Below are positions 2,013-20,733 of a DNA stretch of 64,000 nt, piece by piece (within the stretch, counting starts at the first letter, position 1; each line of letters starts with the position of its first letter). The stretch is from Parasporobacterium sp. GTDB lineage: Bacteria > Bacillota > Clostridia > Lachnospirales > Lachnospiraceae. The position numbers and the translations under genes are program-made. Location: the NCBI GenBank assembly GCA_017510065.1, contig JAFWOB010000184.1, positions 4,671 through 68,670 of the forward strand, given 5' to 3'. The notes beneath the pieces were generated by a model. It saw only the letters and a program-made list of their open reading frames with translations, had not been told where the DNA came from and ran no database searches.

Positions 2013-3368
2013 TCAGAATCTTCCGCCTGCATCACTTCTTTCCAGATTGACAAATCTGGTGTACTTGGGCTGCCAGCCCAGTTTGACCGTTCCCGTAGGA
2101 CCATTCCTCTGCTTTGCTATGATCACTTCCGCGATATTCTTCTCCGGTGAATCTTCATTGTAGTAGTCGTCGCGGTACAGGAACATGATCACGTCCGCAT
2201 CCTGTTCGATCGCGCCGGATTCACGGATATCCGCCAGCATGGGCCTGTGATCGGCTCTGGCTTCCACCGCACGGTTCAGCTGCGACAGAACGATGATCGG
2301 AACATTCAGTTCCCTGGCCAGGGATTTCAATCCACGGGAAATGTCGGAGACTTCCTGCTGCCGGTTGTCGCTTCTGGATCCGCTGCCGCTCATCAGCTGG
2401 ATGTAGTCGATAATGATCAGTTTGATGTCCTGTTCCAGCTTGTACTTGCGGCACTTGGACCTGACATCCGCCACTTTGATCCCGGGAGTATCATCGATGA
2501 TCAGTTTGGAGGTTCCGATGGCCTCCGAGCTCTCCATCAGGGCTTCCCAATCCCGGTCGGACAGATCGCCGGACCTTAAGTTCTGGGCGTCGATCTGTGA
2601 CTCCATTGCCAGCATTCTGTTCACCAGCTGTCCGGCAGACATTTCCAGGGAGAAGATGGCAACCGATTCTTTCTTTTTCACGGTCACGTAATCCGCTATG
2701 GTCAGAACAAATGCGGTCTTTCCCATGGAAGGACGTGCCGCAACCAGGATAAAGTCCGAAGGCTGAAGTCCTGCCGTCTTATAATCCAGATCCGCAAACC
2801 CCGTCGCAAGTCCTGTGATATGCCCCTTTGTCCGGGAAGCTTCTTCGATCTTTCTAAGAACATCCGTCACGATATCCGCGATTGGCATGAACTCCTTGGT
2901 ATTCCGGGACTGAACGAGATTGAAGATCTTCTTCTCCGTATCATCCAGGATATCATCAAGTTTTCCGCTCTGCGCATAGCAGTCGGACGCGATCTCTTCC
3001 GATGTCCGGATCAGCCTTCTGAGCGTTGATTTCTCATAGACGATCCTCGCATACTGCTGTGCATTCACGGAAGAATAGACACTGCTGATGATATCTTTGA
3101 TCAGATCCTCGCTGCGGACTTCCTCCGGCACACCGTTTTCCTTCATCCTGTCCAGGACGGTTACCGGATCCACAGCCCTGTTTTCCCGAAACAGCGCTGC
3201 GATGGCATCAAAAACAGCTCCGTTCTGCTTATAATAGAAGTCTTCCCCGGTCAGTAGCTCCACCACCGGACCGATCACTTCATTGTCGATAAACATCGCG
3301 CCAAGCACGGATTGTTCGGCTTTTATATCGTTGGGCATGACCCGTTTGAGCAGTTCATCATCCGCCAT
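2013..3368 (-). CDS. dnaB: replicative DNA helicase (DnaB family; called DnaC in Firmicutes)
   Basis: 451 aa. N-terminal DnaB domain (AEQSVLGAMF), Walker A ARPSMGKTAF, LIIIDYIQLM and VLSQLNR motifs. Lies directly downstream of rplI. Confidence 0.95.
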   Translation of the reverse strand: MADDELLKRVMPNDIKAEQSVLGAMFIDNEVIGPVVELLTGEDFYYKQNGAVFDAIAALFRENRAVDPVTVLDRMKENGVPEEVRSEDLIKDIISSVYSSVNAQQYARIVYEKSTLRRLIRTSEEIASDCYAQSGKLDDILDDTEKKIFNLVQSRNTKEFMPIADIVTDVLRKIEEASRTKGHITGLATGFADLDYKTAGLQPSDFILVAARPSMGKTAFVLTIADYVTVKKKESVAIFSLEMSAGQLVNRMLAMESQIDAQNLRSGDLSDRDWEALMESSEAIGTSKLIIDDTPGIKVADVRSKCRKYKLEQDIKLIIIDYIQLMSGSGSRSDNRQQEVSDISRGLKSLARELNVPIIVLSQLNRAVEARADHRPMLADIRESGAIEQDADVIMFLYRDDYYNEDSPEKNIAEVIIAKQRNGPTGTVKLGWQPKYTRFVNLERSDAGGRF

Positions 3369-3389
3369 ACTGTGTCTTTTCCGTTTCTT

Positions 3390-3836
3390 TTATTCTTCTT
3401 CGACCTTCACCAGAAGGCTGGCCGTCACATCTTTATGCAGCTTCACTTTTACCTTGTGTTCTCCCAGGGCCTTGATCGGATCCGCAAGGACGATCTTTTT
3501 CTTATCCAGTTCCAGTCCCGTCTGATCCAATACCGCTGCAGCGATTTCCTTGGAAGCAATGGCTCCGAACAGTTTGCCGCCTTCCCCGACCTTTACCCGG
3601 ATCACGACCGTCTTATCCGCCAGCTGTGCGGCAAGCGCCTGGGCATTTTCCAGGTTTTCCCTTGCCACTTTGGCCTCATTCGCATTTTTCAGCTTCAGGT
3701 TGTTCAGGTTGTCCGGTGTCGCTTCCACGCCTTTCTTCTTGGGAATGATAAAATTCCTTGCATAACCATCGGAAACATCGCAGATGTCGCCTTTTTTTCC
3801 AAGTGACTTAACGTCTTCAAGCAGAATTACTTTCAT
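3390..3836 (-). CDS. rplI: 50S ribosomal protein L9
   Basis: 148 aa. [34 protein letters not shown] is the L9 N-terminal signature. Confidence 0.95.
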
Positions 3837-3862
3837 GATTGATTCCTCTTTTTATTTCTTTC

Positions 3863-5920
3863 TTATATCAGGTCTTTTTCCTCTATCATCTTCCGGATCG
3901 TAGCGCCGAGAGCCTTTCTGGCATCTTCTACCGTCGTATCTTCCAGCTGGCATCCCGCAATATTCAGATGTCCGCCTCCGCCCATCCGTTCCATGACAAG
4001 CTGAACATTCGTATCTCCGGTGGAACGGGCGCTGATATAGGTCTTTCCCGCTATGTTGGTCAGTACAAAGCTGGCTTTCACACCTTTGATATCAAGCAGT
4101 TCGTTGGCCACCTGGGCCGCGACCACAGTGGGATTAAAGACTCCCTCAGCAGGAGATACAGCCGCGACAAATCCCGGGATGATCTCTTCCGCAGTTTCCA
4201 TGGCAGCTGCCTTGATTCTGGCAGTATCAAGGGTATCCCGGAAGGAATTGTGGACCGCCTGGATATCGATCCCGATCTTACGCAGATATGCCGCCGCTTC
4301 AAAAGTCCTGACTCCGGTGTTTCTGGTAAAGGAGTCCGTATCGATGATGATACCGCCGTACAGTGCCTCTGCTTCCAGTTTGCGCAGGTTGATATTGTCG
4401 GTAATATACTGCAGGATCTCCGTTACCATCTCGCTGGCGGAACTTGCGGTAGGCTCTACATACGACAGGACCAGATTGTCGATCTTTTCGCCGCTCTGCA
4501 GATGATGGTCGATCAGGACAACCGACGAGGTATTCTGTACCAGATCAGGACATTCAAAGAGCTCCGGACGGTTCACATCCACGATCACCAGGGCTGTATC
4601 CTGGGTCACCAAATCTTCTGCCTGCTCCGGGGAAATGAATACTCCCTGGGAATACTCTTCGTCCTCCAGGAACTGTTCGATCACGCCCTGTACGGTATTA
4701 CTGCCGCGGTTTACAATAATATAGGCATGCTTGCCCAGAGACCTGGCGGCCTTATATATACCCACGGAAGCAGCAAACGCGTCGATATCTGCATTCTTAT
4801 GCCCCATGATCACAACCCGTTCCTTAGAGATCAGCACATCCCTGAGGGCGATTGCCTTCACACGGGCCTTGACGCGGGTGTTCTTTTCCACCTGCTTGGT
4901 TTTGCCGCCGTAGAAGTAGACTCTCTCTCCTTCTTTCACCACCACCTGGTCACCGCCTCTTCCCAGGGCAAGTTCCAGCGCGTTATTGGAAGCTGCCTCC
5001 ACCTGGGTATAGTCTTCTCCCACACCGATGCCGATGCTGATGGTGATAACATGCTCGCTGCCCATATCCAGTTTCTTGATCTGGTCCAGGATCTCGAATT
5101 TGTTTCTCTGAAGGCCGGTAAGGTATTTGCGCTTAAAGATCACATAATACCGGTCTCTTTCCAGTTTGCGGACAACTCCTCCCACGTTGCTGAAATAAGC
5201 GCCGATGGTCTTGTCGATCATCGCAGCCTGGACATTTTTCTGCACATCCAGGTCTCTGCTCATGACTTCATCGTAATTATCCACATAGATTGAACCGATC
5301 ACCAACTGCTCCGCCAGGATCCTGCGCATCATGTTCACGATCTCGGTCTCATCAAACAGATAGATCGCGCACAGGGTCATATCATGCTGCGGCATCAGGA
5401 CGATCTTTCCATCAATCAGGTCCTTGGTTACCTTGATATGCTTGATGCACAGCCGGTAATCCCGGTTGTCATAAAAAACGGAGATATTGTTGGAATCCGT
5501 ATCAAAATGAAGATCTCCTTCCGTCAGTTCGTGGAAGATCTGGGTAATATTGTTCAGTCCGGCTTTCTCGTCATAGATTCGACCGAAGATCCTATTGTAG
5601 GCAATGATCCTGCCATCCGGATCCGTCAGCACATAAGGCATGGGAAAGTCGCTGATCAGTTCTCCTTCCAGTCCTCCGTACTGTCTGGCAAACCGGACCA
5701 GTCCCCTTTCCAGGTTGCGGTTATTGATGGCAAAAAACACAGCCAGCGCCAGCACATAAAGGACAAAAGCAGCGGCTGCCACAAGCCCCGTAGGGATATA
5801 GATAAAGAACAGGGCGATCGTAAGTCCCAGAAGGATCAGTCCGAACACAGCGGGAAAGATGAGGTATCCCCGCATGACAACACCCATATTCAGCAGCAGT
5901 TCTTTTTTCTCTTTTTTCAT
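3863..5920 (-). CDS. gdpP: DHH/DHHA1 phosphodiesterase with membrane anchor, GdpP-type cyclic-di-AMP phosphodiesterase
   Basis: 685 aa. Two N-terminal hydrophobic helices and a PAS/degenerate-GGDEF-like middle. DHH motifs (GHKNADIDAFAAS, VLIDHH) and the DHHA1 GGGGH motif. Conserved position between rpsR and rplI. Confidence 0.85.
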   Translation of the reverse strand: MKKEKKELLLNMGVVMRGYLIFPAVFGLILLGLTIALFFIYIPTGLVAAAAFVLYVLALAVFFAINNRNLERGLVRFARQYGGLEGELISDFPMPYVLTDPDGRIIAYNRIFGRIYDEKAGLNNITQIFHELTEGDLHFDTDSNNISVFYDNRDYRLCIKHIKVTKDLIDGKIVLMPQHDMTLCAIYLFDETEIVNMMRRILAEQLVIGSIYVDNYDEVMSRDLDVQKNVQAAMIDKTIGAYFSNVGGVVRKLERDRYYVIFKRKYLTGLQRNKFEILDQIKKLDMGSEHVITISIGIGVGEDYTQVEAASNNALELALGRGGDQVVVKEGERVYFYGGKTKQVEKNTRVKARVKAIALRDVLISKERVVIMGHKNADIDAFAASVGIYKAARSLGKHAYIIVNRGSNTVQGVIEQFLEDEEYSQGVFISPEQAEDLVTQDTALVIVDVNRPELFECPDLVQNTSSVVLIDHHLQSGEKIDNLVLSYVEPTASSASEMVTEILQYITDNINLRKLEAEALYGGIIIDTDSFTRNTGVRTFEAAAYLRKIGIDIQAVHNSFRDTLDTARIKAAAMETAEEIIPGFVAAVSPAEGVFNPTVVAAQVANELLDIKGVKASFVLTNIAGKTYISARSTGDTNVQLVMERMGGGGHLNIAGCQLEDTTVEDARKALGATIRKMIEEKDLI

Positions 5921-10711: not shown

Positions 10712-11122
10712 ATGCTGAAAGATCTGATTGAAAAATACTATTTCACAGGCAACTATAATTGCGCGGAAACAGTCCTTCATGCAGCCAATGAATACTACGG
10801 GCTGGAACTTCCGGAGCGGGAGATGAAACTGGTCTCCGGATTCGGTGCCGGTATGCAGACCGGAAATGTCTGCGGCGCCCTTCTTGCGGCGATCAGTGTC
10901 CTTTCCCTCAGGTATGTGGAAACAAAAGCCCATGAAAGCGCTGCGATCAAGCCAACTGCGACACTGCTGACCGAAAAATTCATGGATGCCCTGAACGGCA
11001 GCCTGCTGTGCCGGGAGATAAAACCTGCCTATTTCCGGGAGGAGGTCCGCTGCCTTGCAACCGTGCAGGCAGCCTGCGATGTCATCGAGCAGACGATCCG
11101 GGAATACGAAGAAACAAAATAG
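10712..11122 (+). CDS. C_GCAxxG_C_C family redox-active protein
   Basis: 136 aa. Contains YNCAETVLHAA...GNVCGALLAA (the C-GCAxxG-C-C pattern). SD is ACGGAGG. Confidence 0.85.
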   Translation: MLKDLIEKYYFTGNYNCAETVLHAANEYYGLELPEREMKLVSGFGAGMQTGNVCGALLAAISVLSLRYVETKAHESAAIKPTATLLTEKFMDALNGSLLCREIKPAYFREEVRCLATVQAACDVIEQTIREYEETK

Positions 11123-11155
11123 GAAGTTTCGGAACAAAAGCTCCCGGATTCATCC

Positions 11156-11184
11156 TTGACTTTGCATGGGTAAACTGATAAAGT
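11156..11184 (+). promoter_or_regulatory. promoter of the aroF-tyrA leader
   Basis: TTGACT (11156-61), 17-nt spacer, TAAAGT (11179-84). Confidence 0.5.
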
Positions 11185-11212
11185 AGCTTTCAAACAGAAA
11201 GGACTGCTCAGC

Positions 11213-11281
11213 ATGAAGAAGAACTTCACCTATCGCGCATATTATTATCATACCTGTCGGGGCGGTCAGGCTGTTTTGTAA
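11213..11281 (+). CDS. candidate Tyr-rich leader peptide (22 aa) of the aroF-tyrA operon
   Basis: Read directly from the DNA: atg aag aag aac ttc acc tat cgc gca tat tat tat cat acc tgt cgg ggc ggt cag gct gtt ttg taa, giving MKKNFTYRAYYYHTCRGGQAVL. SD GAAAGGA lies 9 nt upstream. A terminator follows 27 nt after the stop. Confidence 0.45.
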   Translation: MKKNFTYRAYYYHTCRGGQAVL

Positions 11282-11307
11282 TGCGCAGAGTGAGATCAGA
11301 AGATCCG

Positions 11308-11340
11308 CGGCACAGGTACAGCAGCCTGTGCCGTTTTTAT
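11308..11340 (+). terminator. leader (attenuator) terminator upstream of aroF
   Basis: CGGCACAGG-tacagcag-CCTGTGCCG followed by TTTTTAT, 42 nt before the aroF ATG. Confidence 0.7.
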
Positions 11341-11382
11341 ATTCTATGCTGGAGAATCTGAAAACAGATAAGGAGAACTGCA

Positions 11383-12399
11383 ATGATCGTTGTATTAAAA
11401 CACGGAACACCGGATGACAAACGTGACCAGCTCATCGAATGGATCAAAGGACAGGGACTGGAAGTCCATATGTCCATAGGAAAAAACCAGACCATCCTCG
11501 GAATGGTAGGCGATACCGGGAGTATTGACAAGGACCTGATCGCATGCCTTGATATCGTAGATTCAGTCAAGACGGTGACGGATCCCTTTAAGCTCTGCAA
11601 CCGCAAATTCCATCCTGCCCCTTCCGTTGTAAATGTAAGCGGCGTTCCCATCGGTGCAGGCCATTTTGCCATGATCGCGGGTCCCTGTTCAGTGGAATCG
11701 GAAGAACAGATCATCGAGGTGGCAAAAGCTGTCAAGGCCTCCGGCGCCAATTTGCTGCGGGGCGGCGCATTCAAGCCCCGGACTTCTCCCTATGATTTTC
11801 AGGGACTGAAAGCAGACGGACTGGAACTTCTGAAAATTGCCCGGGAAGAAACCGGCCTTCCCATCGTCTCCGAAGTCATGGGAGCCGAACAGCTCCCCTT
11901 GTTTGAAGACATTGACATGATACAGATCGGTGCCCGGAATATGCAGAACTTCAACCTTCTCCGGGAGATCGGCAAGCTCAATAAACCCGTTCTCCTGAAA
12001 CGAGGACTTTCCAACACGCTGAAGGAACTGCTGATGAGTGCTGAATACATCATGGCCGGCGGTAATGAGCAGGTGGTCCTGTGCGAGAGAGGCATCCGTA
12101 CTTTCAGTGATTATACCCGGAACACCCTGGATCTGGCCGCTGTTCCCATGCTCCATAAACTGACCCACCTTCCGGTGATCGTAGATCCCAGCCATTCCAC
12201 AGGAATGTCCGATCTGGTCTGTCCGATGGCAGTTGCCGCTGCGGCCTGCGGAGCGGACGGTCTGATGATCGAAGTGCATAACGACCCTATGCACGCTCTC
12301 TGTGACGGTGCCCAGTCCCTGAAGCCGGAAGATTATGCAGATGTAGCGCGTAAAGTATTTGCCATCCGGGATATCATGACAAAACCGGCAGCAATCTGA
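11383..12399 (+). CDS. aroF: 3-deoxy-7-phosphoheptulonate (DAHP) synthase, type I-beta with an N-terminal ferredoxin-like/ACT-like regulatory domain
   Basis: 338 aa. The N-terminal ~70 aa ([25 protein letters not shown]...) is followed by the KDO8P/DAHP synthase barrel ([26 protein letters not shown]). Confidence 0.9.
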
Positions 12400-12419: not shown

Positions 12420-13253
12420 ATGACAGCAGGAATCGTCGGGCTTGGCCTGATCGGCGGATCATTTGCCAAAGCTTATCACAAAAAAGGAGAACGGGTTCTG
12501 GCATTCAACCGGAGCCGGGAGGTTGTGGACTTTGCCATGATCAACGGAGACGTGGATGCCGTCCTCACGAAAGACAACGTGTCCGAATGTGATATTATCA
12601 TCATCTGTATCTATCCGGAAGCGGCAGCGCAGTATCTTGCATCCATAGCGCCATATATCCGCAAGGATACCATCGTCATCGACTCCTGCGGTACCAAGCG
12701 CAAAATCTGCAGCCTGTGCTTCCCCATCGCACAGCAGTACGGTTTTACCTTTGTCGGCGCCCATCCCATGGCAGGCACCAAGTTCTCCGGCTACAAATAC
12801 GCCTATACAGATCTGTTCCGGAACGAACCCATGGTACTCGTTCCTCAGGACCAGGGCGATATCTTCCTTCTCAGCAAGGTGAAGAAACTCCTGGAGCCGG
12901 TCGGTTTCGGGACCTATTCCGTCACAACGGCAGAAGAGCATGACCGGATGATCGCCTTTACCTCCCAGATGGCACATGTGGTTTCCAACGCCTTCATCAA
13001 AAGCCCCACTGCCTCCTTCCACAAGGGGTTTTCCGCAGGCAGTTATAAGGACATGACCCGGGTGGCCTGGCTCAATCCGGAACTCTGGGCAGAACTGTTT
13101 CTGGAAAACCGGGATTTTCTCCTGGAGGAACTGAAGACTCTTTCAGACAGTCTCGGGCAGTACGAAAAAGCGATCCGGGAAAATGATCACGATGAACTGG
13201 TAAGGCTCTTGGAAGAAGGAAGAAAAAGAAAAGAAGAAGTTGACGGGATCTGA
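12420..13253 (+). CDS. tyrA: prephenate dehydrogenase
   Basis: 277 aa. Rossmann motif GIVGLGLIGGSFA and GAHPMAG. Lies 20 nt after aroF. Confidence 0.85.
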   Translation: MTAGIVGLGLIGGSFAKAYHKKGERVLAFNRSREVVDFAMINGDVDAVLTKDNVSECDIIIICIYPEAAAQYLASIAPYIRKDTIVIDSCGTKRKICSLCFPIAQQYGFTFVGAHPMAGTKFSGYKYAYTDLFRNEPMVLVPQDQGDIFLLSKVKKLLEPVGFGTYSVTTAEEHDRMIAFTSQMAHVVSNAFIKSPTASFHKGFSAGSYKDMTRVAWLNPELWAELFLENRDFLLEELKTLSDSLGQYEKAIRENDHDELVRLLEEGRKRKEEVDGI

Positions 13254-13618: not shown

Positions 13619-14119
13619 TTAGTTCGAAGTTCCGCAATCTGCCGATCCTTCCGAATACAGCATCTGAAGTCCGTGCTCCAGGCTGTCCAGCACAGCCAGA
13701 AGATTTTCCCTGGCTGCCTTTTCACTTCCCGGCAGGTTGATGATCAGGGACCTTCCCCTGATCCCGGCGGCACTTCTGGAAAGGCATCCCCGCGGCGTGA
13801 TCTTCATACTTTCTACCCGCATCAGCTCGGGAATCCCGGGCGTTTCCCGCTCGATCACCGCTTTTGTTGCTTCCGGCGTGACATCTCTCGGGGAAAAGCC
13901 GGTTCCCCCGGTGGTCAGCACCAGTGAGACCTTTCGTTCATCACAGCACCTGATCAGTTCGTCTTTGATCTGTTCCATCTCATCCGGAATGATGGCAGTA
14001 CAGACCACCTGGTAGCCGTGTTCGCTCACCAGTTTTTCAAGCATCGGCCCGCTGGTATCCACTCTCTCTCCTCTGGATCCTTTGTCACTGACTGTTATCA
14101 CTGCCGCTGTATAGTTCAT
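13619..14119 (-). CDS. mogA: MogA/MoaB-family molybdenum cofactor biosynthesis protein
   Basis: Start moved to ATG 14119 (MNYTAAVITVSDKGSRGERVDTSGP...). Contains TTGGTGFSPRDVTPEA. About 166 aa. Confidence 0.8.
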   Translation of the reverse strand: MNYTAAVITVSDKGSRGERVDTSGPMLEKLVSEHGYQVVCTAIIPDEMEQIKDELIRCCDERKVSLVLTTGGTGFSPRDVTPEATKAVIERETPGIPELMRVESMKITPRGCLSRSAAGIRGRSLIINLPGSEKAARENLLAVLDSLEHGLQMLYSEGSADCGTSN

Positions 14120-14139
14120 CTTCGTTCCTTTCCGCGCTG

Positions 14140-14634
14140 TTAAAGAAGCACGCGTCTTTTGTATTCTCCGTGTACGCCGCCGGTCTTTTCCTCCAGCCGG
14201 ATCTGGGAGATCACCATATCCTTCTGCACTGCCTTGCACATGTCATACACATTCAGAGCCGCGATACTGACTGCTGTCAAAGCTTCCATCTCCACGCCCG
14301 TCTTTCCACTGCAGGATACCCTGGCTGTGATCTTTACTGCACATTCTTCTTCGTCCAGTTCCAGGGAAAGGTCCGTGCCGTCGATCTGTACCGGATGGCA
14401 CATGGCGATCACCTCCGGGGTTTTCTTTGCGCCCATGATCCCTGCCACCTGGGCAACCGTCAGCACATCGCCCTTCTTCATTCCGCCGCTTTTGATCAGC
14501 TCCATCGTTTCACGGCTGACCAGCACTTTCCCAGTAGCGACGGCAGCTCTCCGGGTTACGTCTTTCTCCCCTACATTGACCATCCTGGCTCTGCCCTGTT
14601 CATTAAAATGTGTGAAATCCTTTTCTGTTTCCAT
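14140..14634 (-). CDS. moaC: cyclic pyranopterin monophosphate synthase accessory protein MoaC
   Basis: 164 aa. Contains MVNVGEKDVTRR...KKGDVLTVAQVAGIMGAKKT...MCHP...GVEMEALTA. Confidence 0.9.
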   Translation of the reverse strand: METEKDFTHFNEQGRARMVNVGEKDVTRRAAVATGKVLVSRETMELIKSGGMKKGDVLTVAQVAGIMGAKKTPEVIAMCHPVQIDGTDLSLELDEEECAVKITARVSCSGKTGVEMEALTAVSIAALNVYDMCKAVQKDMVISQIRLEEKTGGVHGEYKRRVLL

Positions 14635-14638
14635 GTTC

Positions 14639-15592
14639 TCACCCGCCGATCTGATTCATGTTCCTGCCTGCATGGCTGCGGTTTTCAGAAGAAAGCTCCC
14701 CGTGCCACTCCGGTTTTGCCGCCACTGCCTTTTTGATCTGGGCGATCATCTGCTCTTCATCCATACCTTTGATGGAATACTCTGCCTCCCTGTGCAGGCA
14801 TGGCTTGATCTGCCCGTCCGCCGTGATCCGGATCCGGTTGCAGGTTCCGCAGAAATGCCTGCTCAGGGGATTGATGAGGCCTATGTTGCCCTGAGCGCCG
14901 GGAAGATGATATAGCCTTGCCACCCCGCCGTCCTGCGGGATTTCGGAAAGCTGCGGCAGTATCTCCAGCACTTTCTGTCCCGGAACATAAGCGGAAGGTC
15001 CGAATTCACCGCTGTCATACATGGGCATCAGTTCAATAAACCTCACATCCACCGGATATTTCACCGTCAATTCGGCCATAGAGGGGATCTCATCGTCATT
15101 GAATCCGCCGATCAGTACCGCATTGATCTTGATCTTGTCAAATCCTGCGTCGACTGCTGCCTCAATACCTGCCAGAGCCTCATCGAAATGACCCCGCCGG
15201 GTAATATAATGGTATTTATCCTCATCCAGGGTATCCAGGCTGATGTTGATCCTTTTTACCCCTGCGGCTTTCAGATCCTTTGCCAGTCCGGGAAGAAGGG
15301 TTCCGTTTGTGGTAATGCAGACATCCTCGATCCCGGAAACAGCCGCTGCTCTCTCGCAAATAGAAAGGATATTTTTCTTGACCAGCGGTTCCCCGCCCGT
15401 GATCCGGAGCTTATGAATCCCGAGAGAGGCTGCTGCTTTCACGGCACAGATCATTTCTTCTTCTGTCAGCATCTCCGAATGGTCTTTTTTGCAGATCCCG
15501 TCTTCGGGCATGCAGTACCGGCACCGCAGGTTGCAGAGTTCTGTCACTGACAGACGCAGATATGAAATTGTTCTTCCGTATTGATCGATCAT
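14639..15592 (-). CDS. moaA: GTP 3',8-cyclase MoaA (radical SAM)
   Basis: 317 aa. CNLRCRYCMP radical-SAM cluster motif and the C-terminal CGTCNRIRITADG motif. Confidence 0.9.
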   Translation of the reverse strand: MIDQYGRTISYLRLSVTELCNLRCRYCMPEDGICKKDHSEMLTEEEMICAVKAAASLGIHKLRITGGEPLVKKNILSICERAAAVSGIEDVCITTNGTLLPGLAKDLKAAGVKRINISLDTLDEDKYHYITRRGHFDEALAGIEAAVDAGFDKIKINAVLIGGFNDDEIPSMAELTVKYPVDVRFIELMPMYDSGEFGPSAYVPGQKVLEILPQLSEIPQDGGVARLYHLPGAQGNIGLINPLSRHFCGTCNRIRITADGQIKPCLHREAEYSIKGMDEEQMIAQIKKAVAAKPEWHGELSSENRSHAGRNMNQIGG

Positions 15593-20522: not shown

Positions 20523-20699
20523 AATTGGGACAAAGAACATGCGGACATGGTCTCTGGCTGCTGTGTATGCCGTCTCCTTTTCAAATAGGAAGGTCATCTC
20601 GTTTCCAACATGGCCCCGGGCAGACGAGCATATGCTGCGTTTCTCTCTGCCGGATCCTGGCCCATAGCGATATGCCTTAGGGAACAGGATCTCGAAGAC
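20523..20699 (-). promoter_or_regulatory. structured 5' leader of the mod/moa operon; candidate Moco riboswitch
   Basis: About 245-nt leader between the promoter (20706-33) and modA. AGACGG-C-AUAC in the leader can pair with the terminator 5' arm GUAU-CCGUCU (antiterminator). The context (molybdate uptake plus Moco synthesis) fits the Moco RNA motif. I could not verify the consensus from memory. Confidence 0.45.
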
Positions 20700-20705
20700 A
20701 ATTTC

Positions 20706-20733
20706 ATTATAACAGCCTTTCCTGCTTTTTCAA
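20706..20733 (-). promoter_or_regulatory. promoter of the modA operon
   Basis: Minus strand: TTGAAA (20733-28), 16 nt, TGt-TATAAT (20711-06). Confidence 0.6.

Follow-up and report, generated by a model that had tools for sequence, protein, structure and literature searches.

In the leader-peptide attenuators trpL, pheL and hisL of Escherichia coli (Rfam Trp_leader, Phe_leader RF01859 and His_leader), a Shine-Dalgarno (SD) sequence precedes a short open reading frame (ORF) with a run of codons for the product amino acid, and the RNA is organized in four segments, of which 1 and 2 pair as a protector, 2 and 3 as an antiterminator, and 3 and 4 as a terminator, with the leader stop codon lying within or adjoining segment 2. 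The aroF-tyrA operon of E. coli is under the control of the TyrR repressor, and we know of no Tyr leader in that organism. Here, we analyze an element with the same logic and four-segment anatomy, located upstream of aroF-tyrA in 64,000 nucleotides of DNA from Parasporobacterium sp. (Lachnospiraceae; contig JAFWOB010000184.1, positions 4,671 to 68,670 of the forward strand; this whole stretch is referred to as the window), together with its relatives in other Clostridia. The element has no sequence or covariance-model relationship with the proteobacterial leaders, and it differs from them in the codon that appears to be sensed (Tyr), in the host (Clostridia) and in the regulated enzyme, a 3-deoxy-D-arabino-heptulosonate 7-phosphate (DAHP) synthase of type I-beta instead of I-alpha.

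Leader-peptide control has also been proposed outside the Proteobacteria. In Firmicutes, His leaders were proposed for the B. cereus group, Peptostreptococcaceae and Erysipelotrichales, with ribosome-mediated attenuation replacing the T-box in scattered lineages (PMC2965389, PMC9413887). These were predicted by the same kind of comparative evidence as the family described here; however, they concern His, other genes and unrelated sequence, and none of them is associated with the synthesis of aromatic amino acids or comes in paralogous Tyr and Phe versions. The uORFC-13-1 motif, a candidate upstream ORF (uORF) attenuator found only upstream of aroF, is described as combining a promoter, a ribosome-binding site (RBS), a start codon, Phe codon(s), an extra base-paired element and an adjacent terminator, with 24 representatives from Acholeplasma laidlawii (PG-8A, genome 13) and unassigned environmental sequences (Brewer et al. 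2021, RNA Biol, PMC8632094). Its U run is said to encode "at least one phenylalanine", and a Tyr run is not mentioned. By this description, uORFC-13-1 and the window element both lie directly upstream of aroF with a uORF and a terminator, and the host of uORFC-13-1 is Firmicute-related, as are those of the Clostridial family; there was no uORFC-13-1 Rfam match on the window or on family members. In Corynebacterium glutamicum, the Phe-Tyr-Phe leader aroR attenuates the aroF operon with experimental support and responds to Phe, tyrosine availability being reportedly without effect (Neshat et al. 2014, via PMC11802643). The window leader can be likened to aroR by description, with the differences that the aroR host is an Actinobacterium and that aroR has a single Tyr codon. 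Searches of the literature uncovered no paper on a leader with a run of Tyr codons, nor on a leader of aroF or pheA in Clostridia. The mechanism considered here is classical; what is new, as far as could be established, is its specificity for Tyr, the existence of paralogous Tyr and Phe versions and their wide distribution among Clostridia of the gut.

The element had been proposed, from inspection of the sequence alone, as a candidate tyrosine leader-peptide attenuator of a kind unusual for the lineage (referred to here as the original prediction). Leader-peptide attenuators are indeed rarely described in Firmicutes, but the Firmicute precedents given above (His leaders, uORFC-13-1) and a wide occurrence in Oscillospiraceae, Lachnospiraceae and related Clostridia speak against a lineage-specific oddity. 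On the evidence presented below, the element very probably controls aroF-tyrA by ribosome-mediated transcription attenuation, with a leader peptide whose translation senses charged tRNA-Tyr, a reading to which comparison of related leaders lends strong support. It combines an ORF and its SD sequence, a cluster of cognate codons, an intrinsic terminator and, in silico, a ribosome-dependent antiterminator, all of which are features of this class of attenuators. The features of the locus are the following.

11156-11184, plus strand: promoter-like site of the sigma-70 type, TTGACT (11156-11161), 17-nt spacer, TAAAGT (11179-11184); 9 of 12 consensus matches
11197-11203, plus strand: SD sequence of the leader ORF, GAAAGGA, 9 nt before the ATG (from sequence)
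11213-11281, plus strand: putative leader peptide ORF of 22 codons, MKKNFTYRAYYYHTCRGGQAVL, stop codon TAA at 11279-81 (from sequence; homologous ORFs upstream of related aroF genes)
11233-11258, plus strand: segment 1, the 5' strands of the protector hairpin, P1 GCGCAU (11235-40) and P2 AUACCUG (11250-56) (from minimum free energy [MFE] folds and family comparison)
11260-11289, plus strand: segment 2, the switch strand, containing the leader stop codon; family consensus GUAAGGGUAAUUUGUGAUGC (from folding and family alignment)
11290-11308, plus strand: spacer hairpin, GAUC (11294-97) with GAUC (11302-05), the apex of the antiterminator (from folds)
11307-11317, plus strand: segment 3, the terminator 5' arm GCGGCACAGGU, near-invariant in the family (from sequence and alignment)
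11324-11338, plus strand: segment 4, the terminator 3' arm GCCUGUGCCG, with U11334 closing the stem and a U run at 11334-38 (from sequence and alignment)
11383-12399, plus strand: aroF, the first regulated gene, encoding a type I-beta DAHP synthase whose N-terminal regulatory domain is ferredoxin-like (Pfam DAHP_synth_1, 1e-77; DAHP_snth_FXD, 2.6e-19)
12420-13253, plus strand: tyrA, prephenate dehydrogenase, the second gene of the operon (Pfam PDH_N, PDH_C)

The leader ORF contains four Tyr codons, all TAT, at 11231-33 and, three of them consecutive, at 11240-48, and a single Phe codon, TTC, at 11225-27. The core of the terminator stem (11307-11334) is formed by CGGCACAGG and CCUGUGCCG with 9 G-C-rich pairs, followed by T5 at 11334-38, about 44 nt before the aroF ATG at 11383; the RBS of aroF is AAGGAG at 11370-75. 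The promoter hexamers, SD sequence, leader ORF with its Tyr and Phe codons and GC hairpin of the original prediction were all located where it had placed them, the hairpin stem being somewhat extended, and Pfam agrees with its naming of DAHP synthase and prephenate dehydrogenase as the regulated genes; the distance of 42 nt that it gave between terminator and aroF is to be corrected to the value above. A TG at 11176-77 provides an extended -10 for the promoter-like site, and transcription would start at about 11191, judging from the position of the promoter alone. The hexamers by themselves are without significance because consensus matches are frequent in the region (11 promoter-like sites versus 3.9 expected), in which 7 terminator-like consensus sites were also found versus 4.0 expected. 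The gene upstream of the leader (10712-11122, C_GCAxxG_C_C) is unrelated, and the genes beyond tyrA lie on the opposite strand, so that the operon consists of two genes.

The conservation of the leader was assessed at 80 loci obtained by an AroF protein scan of one genome per GTDB species, with AroF identities of 66-83%. The closest relative (L001, 83%) is a Lachnospiraceae metagenome-assembled genome (MAG), and the carriers are nearly all MAGs of Oscillospiraceae, Lachnospiraceae, Christensenellaceae, Acutalibacteraceae and unclassified Clostridia, joined by Hominicoprocola isolates; tyrA follows aroF in 78 of the 80 loci. Where 200 nt or more of upstream sequence was available (76 loci), an aromatic-rich short ORF (ATG start, 10-40 amino acids, at least 4 aromatic residues in 8) precedes aroF in 67 (88%), compared with 67 of 2,265 control windows of 400 nt drawn from the same loci (3%), and with a stricter threshold of at least 6 aromatic residues in 8 the rates are 52/76 (68%) and 0.09%, respectively. 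Since these rates are far above those of the control windows, the aromatic-rich leader ORF is beyond chance. Loss of the small ORF or of its Tyr codons in related leaders, which the original prediction had named as a possible refutation, was looked for, and both proved to be strongly conserved. Typical leader peptides of the family are MKSIFVFAYYYYFTMDS, MKNFVFASYYFYFTASSGKGNL and MQSSKRYYSYYYLSNRTRGAVL, and a terminator follows nearly all of the leader ORFs, the four missed by the terminator scan having imperfect stems. At the four loci truncated by contig ends, the downstream part of the element is retained in three (L019, L026 and L063) and the fourth (L012) has no upstream sequence, while the leader is truly absent at nine aroF loci (L025, L031, L032, L039, L047, L050, L053, L054 and L057). 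An Rfam scan of eight of these nine (all but L032) returned no T-box and no other Rfam element.

Several lines of evidence bear on the translation of the leader ORF: (i) an SD-like motif lies upstream of 55 of 68 family leader ORFs; (ii) in the aromatic frame, an ATG-initiated ORF runs through segment 1 in 58 of 62 distinct leaders, 46 of these 58 with an SD-like motif, compared with 7 ORFs altogether in the other two frames, none of which (0/7) has such a motif; (iii) the aromatic run differs in length by whole codons (YYYYF, YFYFYYYF, FFFYF); and (iv) the codon variation inside the run is confined to U(A/U)(U/C) or UGG. This evidence is indirect but consistent, and it suggests that the leader ORF is translated.

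Two further observations were made among these aroF loci. At 2740-3000 of L025, one of the leaderless loci, segment 2 and the terminator persist in degenerate form (gtaattttgtgatatg ... gcggcatctctctttttt) without an aromatic ORF, which looks like a decayed attenuator. In L036 and L045, a different leader of 33 codons ending in WRWRKF, e.g., MLNNDLNANGRFTFVYSAFYFASSVRNWRWRKF, lies 100-260 nt upstream of aroF; it contains Phe, Tyr and Trp codons, has no clear canonical terminator and may represent a separate attenuator design.

Alignment of the family revealed that conservation is at the RNA level and independent of the position of the stop codon, which is found at three different places relative to the RNA motif. 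The consensus consists, in its 5' part, of nnnGCA, the aromatic codons, UACUUUAC(U/C), a loop, GUAAGGGUAAUUUGUGAUGCnnn and a variable spacer hairpin and, in its 3' part, of (GAU)GCGGCACAG(GU), a loop, (AC)CUGUGCCGC(AUU) and a run of Us; the spacer between segments 2 and 3 varies in both sequence and length. The arrangement is the classical one: segments 1 and 2 enclose the aromatic codons in a hairpin, 2 and 3 can pair as an antiterminator, and 3 and 4 as a terminator. In the window, the three consecutive Tyr codons sit between and inside the P1 and P2 5' strands, and segment 2 could pair alternatively with segment 1 (through CAGG at 11267-70 and AUGCGC at 11281-86) or with the whole terminator region. 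The conserved hairpin over the Tyr codons (11233-11289) had been left out of the original prediction, which therefore fell short of the four segments. The helices are preserved in the family to different degrees. Covariation is strong in the terminator helix, with two-sided changes at 10 of 13 pairs among 55 leaders, and P2 (family form CUUUAC/GUAAGG) is 82% paired. Compensatory changes maintain P1 as GCGCAU/AUGCGC in the window and as UUGCACCG/CGGUGCAA, AGCACGCA/UGCGUGCC and CGGUAUCA/UGAUGCCG elsewhere, with a mean energy of -12 kcal/mol (z = -2.8 versus shuffles). Segment 2 resembles segment 4 in its 3' half (UUUGUGAUGCA), which is able to pair with segment 3; in this 2:3 register pairing amounts to 82%, compared with 24-59% when the partner is slid, and the duplex has a mean energy of -10.3 kcal/mol compared with -6.0 kcal/mol for shuffled controls.

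That the window element belongs to this family is indicated by a score of 61 bits with the covariance model (R1) and by an nhmmer profile made without the window and without L001, which found 11199-11342 at an E value of 7.8e-12. Model R1 revealed no second copy in the window, and there was none in the 80 genome loci; no pheA was found in the window. The all-Tyr run of the window copy is shared with its nearest relatives L001, L002, L007 and L043, and in two of these all-Tyr loci a pheA homologue is divergent from the aroF leader region (L043, 1571-2641, minus strand; L007, 3-554, minus strand).

To model the effect of ribosome position, a footprint from -15 to +12 relative to the A site was assumed, and only RNA lying 3' of it was folded. 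This procedure replaced an equilibrium folding of the entire leader with footprints masked, in which pairs could span the bound ribosome and which was misleading for that reason. With the ribosome stalled with its A site on 11240-48, the predicted MFE structure of 11259-11342 is the antiterminator, at -35.2 kcal/mol compared with -28.7 kcal/mol for the best terminator-containing fold. Its pairs are 11260-74 with 11321-36, 11277-80 with 11317-20, 11282-83 with 11313-14 and 11285-86 with 11310-11, i.e., 11260-11286 with 11310-11336 overall. Once the ribosome sits on the stop codon (11279-81), segment 2 is hidden beneath its footprint and the terminator is predicted to form (-24.1 kcal/mol); RNA free of ribosomes is predicted to adopt both the 11233-11289 hairpin and the terminator (-39.7 kcal/mol). 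The alternative folds are thereby demonstrated in silico, and the ribosome-position logic of the original prediction (antiterminator upon stalling, terminator with the ribosome at the stop codon) is reproduced. Confirmed as well was the antiterminator pairing it had named (11267-75 with 11320-28; 8 Watson-Crick pairs, one G-U), which forms the center of the window helix. The antiterminator is far longer, however, and the core conserved in the family is the 3' part, UUUGURAUGC against the terminator 5' arm, which makes up the inner portion of the helix. This family 2:3 pairing was in turn rejected as the main antiterminator of the window, being weak there (-7.0 kcal/mol), and the longer helix is used instead. 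The family shows the same tendency: of 57 members, 15-16 no longer have the terminator in their MFE structure when the ribosome is stalled, compared with 1 when it is at the stop codon or absent.

These predictions suggest the following course of events. Transcription would begin near 11191, and a ribosome would translate the 22-codon leader as RNA polymerase proceeds, translation being coupled with transcription. When Tyr-tRNA is plentiful, the ribosome would reach the stop codon and cover segment 2; after its release, segment 1 would recapture segment 2 in the 11233-11289 hairpin, and segments 3 and 4 would pair as the terminator (11307-11334 plus U5), ending transcription before aroF. When Tyr-tRNA is scarce, the ribosome would stall on the TAT run at 11240-48 and cover segment 1, and segment 2 (11260-11286), set free, would pair with 11310-11336; the terminator would not form and aroF-tyrA would be transcribed. 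Tyr limitation should, in this scheme, raise readthrough.

The relation between the leader codons and the regulated pathway was explored by an exact-pattern scan of metagenomes with GTAAGGNTAATTTGTGATGC, which gave at least 120 stretches, mostly from the human gut. Among the matches listed, the downstream gene is aroF in at least 49, with leaders of the FAYYYYFT type, and a monocistronic pheA (CM_2, PDT and ACT; chorismate mutase, prephenate dehydratase and ACT) in at least 48. The pheA leaders, MYVSAMFAFIFTFTGLQ (M(M)YVSAMFAFIFTFTGLQ or a close variant), contain four to five Phe codons, with Tyr absent from the run, and an additional four pheA loci, identified by way of PheA homologues of 66-86% identity, have the same Phe leader; the leader DNA remains nearly identical while PheA identity falls to 66%. 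Loci with pheA leaders are L085, L097, L099, L101, L103 (leader at about 3150-3300, pheA at 3341-4486), L201-L203 and L206. Counting unique leaders, at least two Tyr codons in the run occur in 70 of 73 aroF-tyrA leaders and in none of 8 pheA leaders (0/8), and Fisher's test on Tyr versus Phe codon counts gave p = 5e-5, a value to be read with the interrelatedness of the pheA leaders and their few independent events in mind. The only two aroF loci without tyrA, L030 (leader at 2812-2970) and L076 (about 2740-2925), are aroF-aroB-aroA operons with the Phe-dominated leaders FFSFTFFFYFT and FSYFYFFFQGFYFF. The codons of the leader thus track the regulated pathway in the sequences compared.

Taken together, we lean towards a wider reading, held with distinctly less confidence than the attenuator itself, in which the window element is one member of a family of paralogous leader-peptide attenuators that is undescribed and widespread among Clostridia of the gut and rumen. 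One scaffold would have been recoded for Tyr (aroF-tyrA), for Phe (pheA) and for a mixture of the two (aroF-aroB-aroA and possibly an ABC transporter), forming an aromatic amino acid regulon read through tRNA charging that would include the first natural attenuator sensing Tyr codons.

Single loci among the metagenome matches deserve separate mention. In L096 (minus strand of the locus; motif at 465 after reorienting), a complete leader, MNRMHNSYYYAYFYFTGSFSKGNL, with a terminator, GCGGCACAGG/CCUGUGCCGC, precedes an ABC_sub_bind lipoprotein gene (PF04392), which may be a target in aromatic amino acid uptake; this is a single case. At 5200-5930 of L110, a pheA-type leader is broken inside the terminator by an IS200-like Y1 transposase gene (PF01797). 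The match in L094 was discarded as a chance 20-mer within a coding region, and those in L122 and L137 were discarded as they look like assembly chimeras.

Several observations weigh against the attenuator reading or its extension to the family: (i) the 2:3 antiterminator shows weak covariation, as its two strands are almost without variation; (ii) the conservation of segment 2 (about 20 nt) exceeds what pairing alone obviously requires; (iii) the window copy is divergent, with its 61 bits compared with 75-130 bits for most members; (iv) the 2:3 core of the window, weakened by the UAA stop codon, has a z score of +0.8, and the window appears to rely on the extra pairing of 11260-74 with 11321-36, shared only with close relatives such as L001; (v) the pheA leaders are a narrow group of near-identical sequences, so that the codon swap rests on few independent events; and (vi) the terminator remains the most stable structure at equilibrium in about 70% of members despite a stalled ribosome. 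The last point implies that the model needs kinetic, co-transcriptional control in most members. In E. coli trp attenuation the decision is kinetic, and in the Clostridial family segment 3 is predicted to be sequestered upstream, before segment 4 exists, in 56-57 of 57 stalled cases compared with 31-32 of 57 otherwise.

If the proposed reading is correct, tyrosine would be added to the amino acids sensed through leader-peptide attenuation, and a mechanism regarded as proteobacterial would emerge as the chief means by which abundant gut Clostridia, most of them uncultured (Oscillospiraceae, Lachnospiraceae), control entry into aromatic amino acid synthesis. The occurrence of Tyr and Phe versions of a single scaffold would constitute a natural specificity-swap experiment, indicating that such switches evolve through the recoding of a few codons. 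With the element as a rule, hundreds of aroF and pheA loci from metagenomes can be annotated, and its covariance model could be submitted to Rfam; the element may also serve as a compact Tyr- or Phe-responsive part for the engineering of anaerobes; the understanding of the attenuation mechanism itself is unchanged.

Known RNA families were searched with Rfam in 10900-11600 at permissive E values, in the whole window, in L006 and L103 and in ten leaderless loci. In 10900-11600, the sole match was osmY below threshold (E 0.016; 21.6 versus 46.9 bits), which was rejected as a chance match of a hairpin plus RBS. The best match in L103 was Phe_leader at 18.5 bits against a threshold of 55, and nothing relevant was found in L006. 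A T-box riboswitch (RF00230) was rejected: there was no match at E values up to 10 in 10900-11600 nor at the gathering score window-wide, the GGUGGNACC core is absent, and the leader measures about 150 nt to the terminator compared with an expected length of about 200-300 nt. Likewise rejected was a TRAP site, as there is no array of at least five (G/U)AG triplets, with 4 such triplets within 198 nt compared with the 9-11 expected of TRAP, which would be spaced by 2-3 nt and overlap the antiterminator.

The conservation of the RNA could also reflect an attenuator that binds a ligand, as a small Tyr/Phe riboswitch, or an RNA-binding regulatory protein; the bound factor would then decide the fold, and the ORF would be a by-product. 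Such a model, which we regard as improbable, draws on the near invariance of segment 2 and of the terminator arm GCGGCACAG across Clostridia families and across aroF and pheA leaders, which exceeds that of most leader-peptide attenuators, and on the near identity of the pheA leaders at diverged pheA genes. However, it does not explain why the ATG, SD sequence and open frame are maintained specifically in the aromatic frame, why the run changes in length by whole aromatic codons, or why Phe codons replace Tyr codons exactly where the gene is pheA, with the rest of the scaffold unchanged. The RNA consists of two simple hairpins with no conserved multi-helix junction, and the searches above gave no Rfam match, TRAP-type triplet array or T-box core. 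The invariance is explicable without a bound factor, since segment 1 encodes U-rich codons, segment 2 pairs with both 1 and 3, and segment 3 pairs with 4.

Even less probable, in our view, is nascent-peptide arrest of the TnaC or Erm type, in which the conserved F-A-Y-Y-Y-Y-F-T would halt its own translation upon sensing free tyrosine or a different small molecule instead of tRNA-Tyr charging. Conservation does extend beyond the aromatic run, with Ala before it and Thr after it, but these codons (GCA and ACU/ACC) are the strands of the P1 and P2 helices, which explains their conservation. Peptide length, run length and C-terminal tail are freely variable, the stop codon occupies three different positions relative to the RNA motif, and the window peptide (YRAYYYHT) lacks most of the consensus; moreover, induction by the free amino acid would be of the wrong sign, as a biosynthetic operon would be switched on while its product is in ample supply. 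A constitutive partial terminator or mRNA-stabilizing hairpin with a chance ORF in the window, least probable of all, could appeal to the abundance of promoter-like and terminator-like sites in the region noted above but is already contradicted by the comparative data, namely, the 88% versus 3% frequency of aromatic-rich ORFs upstream of aroF, the profile homology to a conserved family, the conserved ORF frame and the covarying helices.

Elsewhere in the window, the only Rfam match at the gathering score was a Moco (molybdenum/tungsten cofactor) riboswitch, RF01055, at 20558-20709 on the minus strand (64.6 bits versus a gathering score of 36). Near it, also on the minus strand, are genes for a MoaA-like radical SAM protein (14639-15592) and a MoCF_biosynth protein (13619-14239).

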